IMG/VR virus record: IMGVR_UViG_2713896902_000001
Length of the DNA: 31,164 nt
Source: a virus
Lineage: Duplodnaviria > Heunggongvirae > Uroviricota > Caudoviricetes
Reading direction: 5' to 3' (one strand)
Positions within the stretch are counted from its first letter, which is position 1. Each line of letters opens with the position of its first letter. This document shows positions 29,233 through 29,989 of the stretch, piece after piece. The notes below the pieces were generated by a model. It worked only from the letters and a program-made list of their open reading frames with translations. It had not been told where the DNA came from and did no database searches. Both the position numbers and the translations under genes were made by a program.

Positions 29233-29454
29233 TCATTTTGTGACCAATGCGATAAGTAGCGGGATAAGAATTGATAAAATCAACAGGCCGATGATCCACT
29301 TTTGATTTTCACTGGCCTTATCTCTATTTTCATCAATCTTATCCATAATTCGACGCTCTAAGCCGTGCATATCACCGCGAATGGCAATTATCTCATTGCG
29401 AACATCCGAGAAGTGGTTGGCTTGATGTTCAATGTGTGGCGTTCTGCCTTTCAT
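29233..29454 (-). CDS. small tail-anchored membrane protein (73 aa), XhlA/holin-like architecture
   Basis: GGTGAGGA RBS; N-terminal coiled-coil-like region then C-terminal TM helix WIIGLLILSILIPLLIALV. Confidence 0.55.
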   Translation of the reverse strand: MKGRTPHIEHQANHFSDVRNEIIAIRGDMHGLERRIMDKIDENRDKASENQKWIIGLLILSILIPLLIALVTK

Positions 29455-29533
29455 GCCTGATCCTCACCCATCGTCACCACCTGCTGGTGTATAAAGGTAT
29501 TGGCCCAAGCAGCTTTCCAATGGGCACTCATGT

Positions 29534-29989
29534 TTATACGCTGACCTTACAATCAATCACCGCTTTTAACTTTTCAGCATTGCTTCCCTGACGCTTCCAC
29601 GCGCTGTAAATATCTTTATCCCACGCTTTACCAGCTTTTGTTTGATAGCCTGCTTCATTGATCCGTTCAGCTATCACACGCCCATTATCAAATCCCTGTT
29701 GGATGGTATCGGCAATGATCTTTATAACTGCCGTTTCGTTATATGGCTTTGGTGGGATGTTCGGCTTTCCGGCAATAAGCGACGCAGCGGCTTTTTCCAT
29801 GCGCTCCACCAGCCCAAGCATTCGTGAATCAATAGACTTTTCCGGCTGTCCCAGCTTCATGCGAATCGCATCAACAAGCCAGGAGGTTTTATCCCCTCCA
29901 GAAGCGAGAACAGACCGATTAAACTCATCCTGCAATTCAGATGGGATGCGGAACGCGATCAGATTAGATTTGCCCATTGCAAAGACCAT
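29534..29989 (-). CDS. ribbon-helix-helix-like DNA-binding protein with C-terminal domain of unknown function (151 aa)
   Basis: N-terminal LIAFRIPSELQDEFNRSV...SWLVDAIRMKLG fits a beta-strand/helix/helix RHH pattern; upstream of the membrane protein gene on the same strand. Confidence 0.6.
   Translation of the reverse strand: MVFAMGKSNLIAFRIPSELQDEFNRSVLASGGDKTSWLVDAIRMKLGQPEKSIDSRMLGLVERMEKAAASLIAGKPNIPPKPYNETAVIKIIADTIQQGFDNGRVIAERINEAGYQTKAGKAWDKDIYSAWKRQGSNAEKLKAVIDCKVSV

Follow-up and report, generated by a model that had tools for sequence, protein, structure and literature searches.

For EcCIMP1, the phage-inducible chromosomal island (PICI) of E. coli MP1, excision and transduction by the P22-like phage Kapi1 have been demonstrated by experiment (Pick, Stadel and Raivio, ISME J 2025; PMC11773190). 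Judged by the content and order of its backbone genes, the part between 11.7 and 30.9 kb of the window, that is, of the whole 31,164-nucleotide stretch of DNA analysed here, is an EcCIMP1-like PICI. Both islands possess an integrase, an AlpA-type regulator, an AntA/AntB antirepressor, an Ash/Icd region, a TOPRIM/DUF927 primase, ejection genes, a 232-aa lipoprotein that is 100% identical between them, a homologous non-coding stretch, both iteron clusters and a terminal PerC-family gene. However, EcCIMP1 lacks the 151-aa and 73-aa genes that are the subject of this study, and has an Xis-like alpA_1 and a ~63-aa convergent ORF there. Its PerC-family protein, EcCIMP1_025, is the counterpart of that of the window by position and family, but the two are only 54% identical (PMC11773190). 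Moreover, EcCIMP1 integrates at the tRNA-Thr gene by proA, whereas the closest relatives of the window island sit between yicC and dinD. For the window island, helper-phage excision and packaging would be a prediction. The superinfection immunity of EcCIMP1, the only characterised relative, cannot be attributed to the 151-aa and 73-aa genes, since that island lacks both.

The immI region of P22 carries mnt, orf59a and sieA in this order, and the three genes converge on gene 16. They are contiguous in P22, and the SieA protein keeps P22-like phages from injecting their DNA (Leavitt et al., mBio 2024, PMC10883804). As is proposed for the window, an RHH repressor gene stands first in a short transcription unit, expressed from the prophage, that ends in the gene of a small inner-membrane protein and converges on ejection genes. 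The products are different, given that SieA has ~162 aa and three membrane helices, whereas the 73-aa protein would have a coiled coil and one membrane helix. Nor is the 151-aa protein Mnt, since the two align weakly over the RHH part only and differ in their C-terminal domain.

In bacteriophage P4 one iteron is clustered at two distant places, ori and crr, of which one lies by the primase-helicase gene. The window has a similar arrangement, with 12 copies of GTTGGTTCA against 0.24 expected, gathered in two clusters several kb apart, one of which directly follows the primase gene (Table 1). In each of them, an A+T-rich core lies between three and three inverted GTTGGTTCA repeats, and the architecture of the second cluster is common to Salmonella, Serratia, Pantoea and EcCIMP1. 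The iteron sequence is not that of P4 and the primase is of the DUF927 type; protein binding to these repeats and their role in replication are putative.

The first-pass annotation had located two minus-strand ORFs of 151 and 73 aa next to crr-like iterons, and our results agree with it on both points. It had further taken the two genes for a regulator paired with a membrane-disrupting protein, as in toxin-antitoxin or abortive-infection modules and some lysis cassettes. An RHH gene followed by the gene of a small membrane protein does look like a toxin-antitoxin operon, but the comparative context points to two unrelated histories. The explanation that we favour, and hold to be probable though well short of certain, is that the island is an EcCIMP1-like satellite of P22-like phages, in which the regulator and the 73-aa gene have come to lie side by side by chance inside a defence hotspot.

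The island and its backbone

Megablast of the DNA of the region gave no close match among phage records and matched hundreds of E. coli chromosomes: it is a chromosomal island. Strain 4750 carries the same element, ~19 kb long, between yicC and dinD; its left part is made up of the integrase, an HTH regulator, the AntA/AntB antirepressor, Ash and the TOPRIM/DUF927 primase, and its right part of the P22-like ejection proteins, the lipoprotein, the regulator and 73-aa genes, and PerC. Int-alpA, isrK and C4 RNAs were detected in the island with Rfam. The gp16-like protein of the ejection module carries a lytic transglycosylase domain. It is on this module that the slot occupied by the 73-aa gene converges, as sieA does on gene 16 in P22. 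In the non-coding stretch that borders the slot there are three copies of the AGTACGCGCNCG motif and, at 28929-28950, a perfect hairpin of 10 bp, and the 98-aa ORF within the stretch is probably not a gene. At the other end, the regulator and PerC/ANR genes are transcribed divergently from either side of the second iteron cluster.

Table 1. Positions in the window of the features of the EcCIMP1-like island
Feature	Position	Strand	Basis or remark
Tyrosine integrase, left end of the island	11752..12966	+	Pfam; synteny with EcCIMP1
TOPRIM/DUF927 primase gene	18858-21617		
First iteron cluster, probable origin	21643..21753	.	Directly after the TOPRIM/DUF927 primase gene
P22-like DNA-ejection module (DUF2824, gp7-like, gp20-like, gp16-like)	22667..27835	+	RefSeq of a near-identical island; Pfam in siblings
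Conserved non-coding island backbone at the border of the cargo slot	28685..29232	.	Homologous stretch in EcCIMP1; unannotated in RefSeq
73-aa tail-anchored XhlA-like membrane protein (predicted), phrog_6324 family; cargo gene	29233..29454	-	
79-bp spacer, relic of the 5' part of a longer ancestral ORF	29455..29533	-	Translation; DNA alignment with P22-like prophage copies
Island regulator gene	29534..29989	-	ORF of 151 aa, or 147 aa from the likely start M5 at 29977
Putative operator and promoter of the regulator gene	30008..30038	.	Two overlapping palindromes, unique in the window
Second (crr-like) iteron cluster	30092..30212	.	Repeat count in the window
PerC/ANR-family regulator gene	30249..30536	+	Pfam PerC, E 2.6e-33

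Origin of the 73-aa gene

XhlA (PF10779) is a membrane-associated lysis accessory of the Bacillus prophage PBSX. The 73-aa protein resembles it in its size (~70-100 aa) and in its build, with a coiled coil at the N-terminus and one predicted membrane helix at the C-terminus. The predicted structure is one continuous helix over residues 6-72 (pLDDT 82.5), and the protein ends in WIIGLLILSILIPLLIALV, its C-terminal 19 residues being hydrophobic; the description of a coiled coil followed by a C-terminal membrane anchor, already made from the first reading of the DNA, is therefore correct as a prediction. The likeness to XhlA, noted in the same annotation, runs consistently through the relatives, though below the Pfam threshold. 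The 73-aa protein had no match in Pfam at E <= 1. When it was scanned together with 27 relatives, XhlA was the commonest sub-threshold Pfam match among the 28 sequences, and appeared at E <= 0.01 in 12 of them (best 1e-5). No XhlA match for which a score is shown reaches the Pfam gathering score, the relatives P0015 and P0023, for which scores are given, having 15.0 and 20.8 bits against a threshold of 34.7 bits. The family is that of phrog_6324, whose function is not annotated; relatives also match, more weakly, phrog_689 'holin' (5e-7) and phrog_1193 'hemolysin'. By PHROG annotation, no exclusion protein was found for either the 73-aa protein or its longer relatives, and PADLOC, Pfam and NCBIfam gave no toxin family for it. 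A literature search by protein accession returned no papers.

The family is small. A word-indexed search gave 24 clusters, every one of which, where the source is named, comes from E. coli, and an exhaustive profile search of 1.84 billion proteins gave 43 representatives. Most members have 103-136 aa, and the region that matches the 73-aa protein is C-terminal in them, after a glycine-rich linker. This core of coiled coil and membrane helix is the conserved part of the whole family.

A copy of the gene that is 80% identical is present in P22-like E. coli prophages, where the order is mnt (85-aa Mnt-like RHH protein), orf123 (zinc-ribbon), orf117 and orf75/109, converging on gene 16. The homologue is orf117, an open frame of 117 aa, and orf75/109 encodes a small variable membrane or coiled-coil protein. 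The homologue thus occupies the position that sieA has in P22, between mnt and gene 16, where it would be expected to be expressed in the lysogen. In temperate phages the relatives are located in immI-like regulatory/moron regions or among tail genes. In all the phage contexts seen, the family member is preceded by a zinc-ribbon protein of ~120 aa (phrog_4293). The same zinc-ribbon/XhlA-like cassette is found in Salmonella phage SPN3UB (gp24-gp25, with stop/start overlap) and in Klebsiella phage ST101-KPC2phi6.1, and the two partners have diverged in parallel across phages. The family also occurs in temperate phages that do not have the 151-aa regulator. Given that the zinc-ribbon protein always accompanies the family in phages, it is this protein, and not the regulator, that is the conserved partner of the 73-aa protein; its gene is absent from the cargo slot of the window.

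The DNA homology between the island and prophage copies ends at the stop codon of the 73-aa gene and, upstream, runs through the 79-bp spacer, in which there are an in-frame TGA and a deletion of ~20-25 bp. About 40 N-terminal codons have been lost from the window copy. As the alignment indicates, the 73-aa gene is an N-terminally truncated derivative of a phage gene of ~104-130 aa, now without its partner. The source is a two-gene cassette, consisting of the ~120-aa zinc-ribbon gene and then the gene of the ~100-130-aa XhlA-like tail-anchored protein, of which the island copy has retained only the coiled coil and the membrane anchor. The spacer supplies a good Shine-Dalgarno sequence, GGTGAGGA, in front of an ATG that has been kept.

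Despite this history, comparison of the alleles indicates that the gene remains under purifying selection. Comparison with the prophage copy gave a dN/dS of 0.25. For the island alleles of 73 and 66 aa, which an in-frame indel of 21 nt sets apart, the value was 0.30. The gene could be decaying, given that its conserved partner and N-terminal region are lost and that some genomes carry frameshifted alleles (P0005, P0017 and P0150). In that case the ORF would be a non-functional remnant of a recombination that imported part of a prophage immI region, and would persist by recent clonal inheritance only, which accords with the in-frame stop left by the 5' truncation and with the finding that nearly all island copies are 95-99% identical. 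Against this stand the dN/dS values, also across the indel, the Shine-Dalgarno sequence and ATG that have been kept, and the fact that what is left is the conserved core of the family. We consider decay into a remnant to be unlikely, although it is the main alternative to a role of the 73-aa protein in exclusion or defence.

The regulator and its putative operator

The regulator has a much wider distribution. Its homologues, which typically have 141-147 aa and an identity of 63-80%, form at least 352 clusters and come from E. coli, Salmonella, Klebsiella, Enterobacter, Serratia, Pantoea, Erwinia and Pectobacterium, and none was found among 50,697 phage records. In nearly every context examined the gene is located at one end of a similar island, and in most such islands a DUF927 primase or an injection/tape-measure-like gene is found within the fetched flank. 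The regulator is thus a backbone gene of islands across Enterobacterales and not half of a pair. Its true start is probably the fifth codon, M5, since the homologues in all other genera begin at the equivalent position (MSKSNL...) and the length in RefSeq is either 147 or 151 aa, depending on the strain.

That the N-terminus is RHH-like, as had been noticed at first reading, is plausible but weak. No Pfam RHH model matched the regulator, and the hhalign alignment of residues 11-52 with the RHH part of P22 Mnt, although in register, is a weak one (42 columns, E 0.0047, probability 7.5%). The AlphaFold monomer has an N-terminus of low confidence, with a coil followed by helices at residues 17-29 and 34-45, which is the pattern expected for an RHH strand that forms only in the dimer. 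One homologue is named 'Arc-like DNA binding domain protein' by one source. Searches of Pfam, NCBIfam and PADLOC gave no significant family for the regulator or for the 73-aa protein. Also predicted are a helix in the centre and, with confidence, a helical domain at the C-terminus, whose fold weakly resembles the HTH at the N-terminus of small terminases and the HTH domains of recombinases. In a search for a relative of solved structure, the alignment profile returned only a chance match to a ribosomal protein.

RHH proteins read DNA through their N-terminal beta-strand. Upstream of the regulator ORF, at 19-49 bp, there are two overlapping palindromes, TACAGTATACCACTGTA at 30008-30024 and GTATAACACTGTTATAC at 30022-30038. 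All 17 fetched loci with a regulator of the SNLVAFR type carry GTATAACnnnGTTATAC at 45-63 bp before the start codon, and among the loci examined it was found in none without the regulator gene. In the SLSVTFR-type loci of Erwinia and Pantoea, the palindrome is replaced at the same position by the direct repeat TGTCTTRC-N2-TGTCTTRC (4/4). The operator repeat thus co-varies with the predicted beta-strand, and because it is this strand that reads DNA in RHH proteins, the co-variation supports the view that the regulator binds the region of its own promoter. Regulators of the Arc/Mnt/CopG type are characterised by an operator, palindromic or repeated, that lies at their own promoter and is read by the beta-strand, and the binding predicted here is of this kind. 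Within the second palindrome, and in the direction of the regulator gene, TGGTATACT fits an extended -10 element, so that the same segment may also be the promoter; as the promoter scan gave no sigma-70 site in 28600-30700, we infer this role, and the co-transcription of the two genes, from the arrangement of the sequence. A LexA box in the operator was ruled out when the sequence was read, its spacing and orientation being wrong.

The regulator may alternatively not be mainly a transcription factor and may act in replication or packaging, for example at the crr-like iterons or a pac-like site. In most loci examined it adjoins the second iteron cluster, and the weak resemblance of its C-terminal domain to small-terminase and recombinase HTH folds would suit such a role. 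However, EcCIMP1 has both iteron clusters without the regulator and is still mobilised (PMC11773190), so that the iterons do not track the regulator gene, and the motif that does track it, together with its beta-strand, is the promoter-proximal repeat. A role in replication or packaging is thus improbable, and we retain that of an autoregulatory DNA-binding protein. The adjacency of regulator and iterons has exceptions, with an AlpA gene lying between them in Klebsiella and a 124-aa gene directly upstream of the regulator in Erwinia.

A variable slot downstream of the regulator

Several observations indicate that the two genes do not form a module. The regulator is carried by 360 of 5,426 complete E. 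coli genomes, and the 73-aa gene accompanies it in only 166 of these, leaving 194 in which the regulator occurs without it. In Salmonella, Klebsiella, Serratia, Pantoea and Erwinia, none of the regulator homologues examined has the 73-aa gene beside it. What is found instead directly downstream of the regulator varies. A sibling island in E. coli has AbiD (PADLOC, 7e-58), another has an M78/CapP-like peptidase and a partner without an assigned function, Pantoea has Abi_2 (Pfam) and Serratia a PemK-like toxin. In Erwinia, Salmonella and Klebsiella the slot is empty, and the regulator is followed directly by a conserved convergent ORF of ~62 aa. The bounds of the slot are the RHH gene on one side and the conserved ~62-aa ORF or the island backbone on the other. 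The slot has a fixed position and flanks that are conserved, and its cargo varies, known defence genes being among it. By its gene content it is a satellite defence hotspot, and the 73-aa gene is cargo in it.

Defence hotspots have been described in P4-like satellites and PICIs (bioRxiv 10.1101/2021.01.21.427644; PMC13586616). Such hotspots share with the slot of the window a fixed position and conserved bounds, between which the content changes from copy to copy, here AbiD, the M78 pair, PemK or nothing. They differ from it in that the slot of the window lies downstream of an RHH gene and has as cargo a truncated gene that belongs to no recognised system. A hotspot downstream of the RHH gene in EcCIMP1-like islands is not described in the literature that we searched. 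The EcCIMP1 family of satellites of P22-like phages, itself described only recently, gains with this slot a new variable site, whose cargo includes AbiD, PemK and peptidases.

It might still be asked whether the 73-aa protein is a membrane-disrupting toxin that the RHH protein holds in check by neutralising or repressing it, so that the two would form a dedicated toxin-antitoxin or abortive-infection module, as was first proposed. The two genes are on one strand, 79 bp apart, with the RHH gene first and no terminator between them (no significant RNA structure was found in the spacer either, the fold z-score being 0.58); they occur together in 166 E. coli genomes, and genuine defence or addiction genes are held by the same slot in sibling islands. 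Nevertheless, the regulator is much better conserved than the supposed toxin and occurs much more widely (at least 352 clusters against 24), and the PADLOC and toxin models matched neither protein. Around the 73-aa gene no antisense or structured RNA, no promoter on either strand and no terminator was found in searches that were not exhaustive (Rfam, a promoter and terminator scan, and fold score), the only Rfam match at E <= 1 being a spurious miRNA model over the iterons. Given that the regulator and the 73-aa gene are not co-inherited and that the partner of the 73-aa family is the zinc-ribbon protein, they are not a dedicated module, and we regard the proposal as very improbable. The idea of defence fails for the pair and survives in a weaker form, which concerns the 73-aa gene alone, as an occupant of the slot that holds AbiD, M78 or PemK cargo elsewhere. 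The other layout proposed at first, in which the 73-aa protein, as a holin or an XhlA-type lysis accessory, would help to release the satellite or its helper phage, is scarcely credible despite the XhlA shape and the weak matches of its relatives to XhlA and to 'holin' and 'hemolysin' PHROGs, since no endolysin, amidase, XhlB-type holin or spanin adjoins the gene in the island or in the three phage contexts of its relatives, which lie outside the lysis cassette, and since its hosts and genomic context are not those of XhlA.

Under the chance juxtaposition that we favour, the regulator, as an RHH-type DNA-binding protein, most likely has the double palindrome as its binding site and acts from there as the repressor of its own promoter. 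Since no promoter or terminator belongs to the 73-aa gene itself, its transcription while the island is resident is probably a read-through that starts at the regulator promoter, and its product would thereby be made at a low, autoregulated level. The protein would insert into the inner membrane by its C-terminal helix and most likely act there in phage exclusion or defence. That the slot contains AbiD, the M78 pair and PemK in sibling islands makes such a role of the 73-aa protein alone a reasonable one. The position of the prophage homologue, at the place of sieA by the ejection genes, also suggests exclusion or defence, as a guess from context, and by analogy the role is plausible.

The cassette itself may be of wider interest. 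The uncharacterised pair of zinc-ribbon and tail-anchored genes at the sieA position is a candidate exclusion system. It is conceivable, although we think it unlikely, that the phrog_4293 zinc-ribbon protein and the phrog_6324 tail-anchored protein constitute an undescribed two-gene system for superinfection exclusion or abortive infection, from which the effector alone was captured under the RHH repressor of a satellite. Current understanding would be changed only if the cassette proved to be a new defence mechanism. In that event, a membrane effector would be made constitutively in cells that carry the island and would act against P22-like phages, and the cassette would take the place of sieA in P22-like prophages, with other temperate phages carrying it too.

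Borders and relatives of the cargo slot

In most genera, the cargo slot, which is the variable position directly downstream of the RHH-like regulator gene, has as its far border a conserved ORF of ~62 aa that could be assigned to no family and is convergent to the regulator gene. EcCIMP1 has a similar ORF as well, spotted by eye only and without RefSeq annotation; the window lacks the ORF. Elsewhere, an XhlA-like tail-anchored protein (phrog_6324) forms a conserved and often overlapping gene pair with a zinc-ribbon protein of ~120 aa (phrog_4293). P22-like prophages have this pair in immI-like regions, and it is also present in Salmonella phage SPN3UB and in one Klebsiella phage.

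Iterons and the conserved non-coding backbone

One 9-bp iteron occurs in the island in two clusters, 8.4 kb apart, each with an A+T-rich core flanked by 3 + 3 inverted repeats. This two-cluster layout, which resembles that of P4 ori/crr, is kept in EcCIMP1 and in the Salmonella and Serratia islands.

The window island and EcCIMP1 also have in common a non-coding stretch that gave no match in Rfam. It contains the AGTACGCGCNCG motif three times, against a chance expectation of none, together with a perfect hairpin, AGTTGCAAAA/TTTTGCAACT; in Serratia, the AGTACGCGCNCG motif has the iterons on one side and the regulator gene on the other. This backbone could serve as a pac-like site or be bound by a protein.

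Ejection module, Rfam RNAs and a neighbouring element

The P22-type ejection-protein module is swapped for other genes in sibling islands of other genera, its place being taken by a TMP_3 tape-measure-like gene in Klebsiella, a PhageMin_Tail-like gene in Pantoea and an E217_GP41-like gene in Erwinia. The DNA-injection components of these satellites may be matched to the type of helper phage. Rfam detects int-alpA RNA, isrK and C4 antisense RNA in the island, and the position of isrK and C4 inside an Ash-family ORF suggests that the antirepressor region is under antisense control of the P1/P7 type.

Another mobile element lies immediately left of the island. It may represent either the remnant of a prophage or a satellite that encodes a capsid, arranged in tandem with the PICI.

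Coordinates of features in the window and in comparison loci (L-numbers, each with its own coordinates)
Feature	Window	Strand	Comparison loci	Source
Left-hand mobile element	609-11481
Serine resolvase	609-1148	-
Capsid protein E-like gene	6155-7183
Dit-like tail protein	9353-10066
Tyrosine integrase of left-hand element	10147-11481	-
int-alpA RNA	13027-13094			Rfam
Ash-family ORF	15831-16898
isrK + C4 antisense RNA	16212-16439			Rfam
Iteron clusters	21643-21753; 30092-30212
P22-type ejection module (loci: replacements)	22667-27835		L006 8511-11222; L029 11659-14235; L028 8788-9888
Non-coding backbone (loci: listed counterparts)	28685-29232		L025 4590-5130; L009 5780-5870
AGTACGCGCNCG motifs	28908; 28961; 29193
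Hairpin	28929-28950
~62-aa ORF or similar			L002 6480-6671; L006 6440-6631; L009 7145-7333; L028 7511-7699; L025 about 3400-3624
phrog_4293 + phrog_6324 pair			L013 5517-6234; L027 4535-5204; L026 4565-5216
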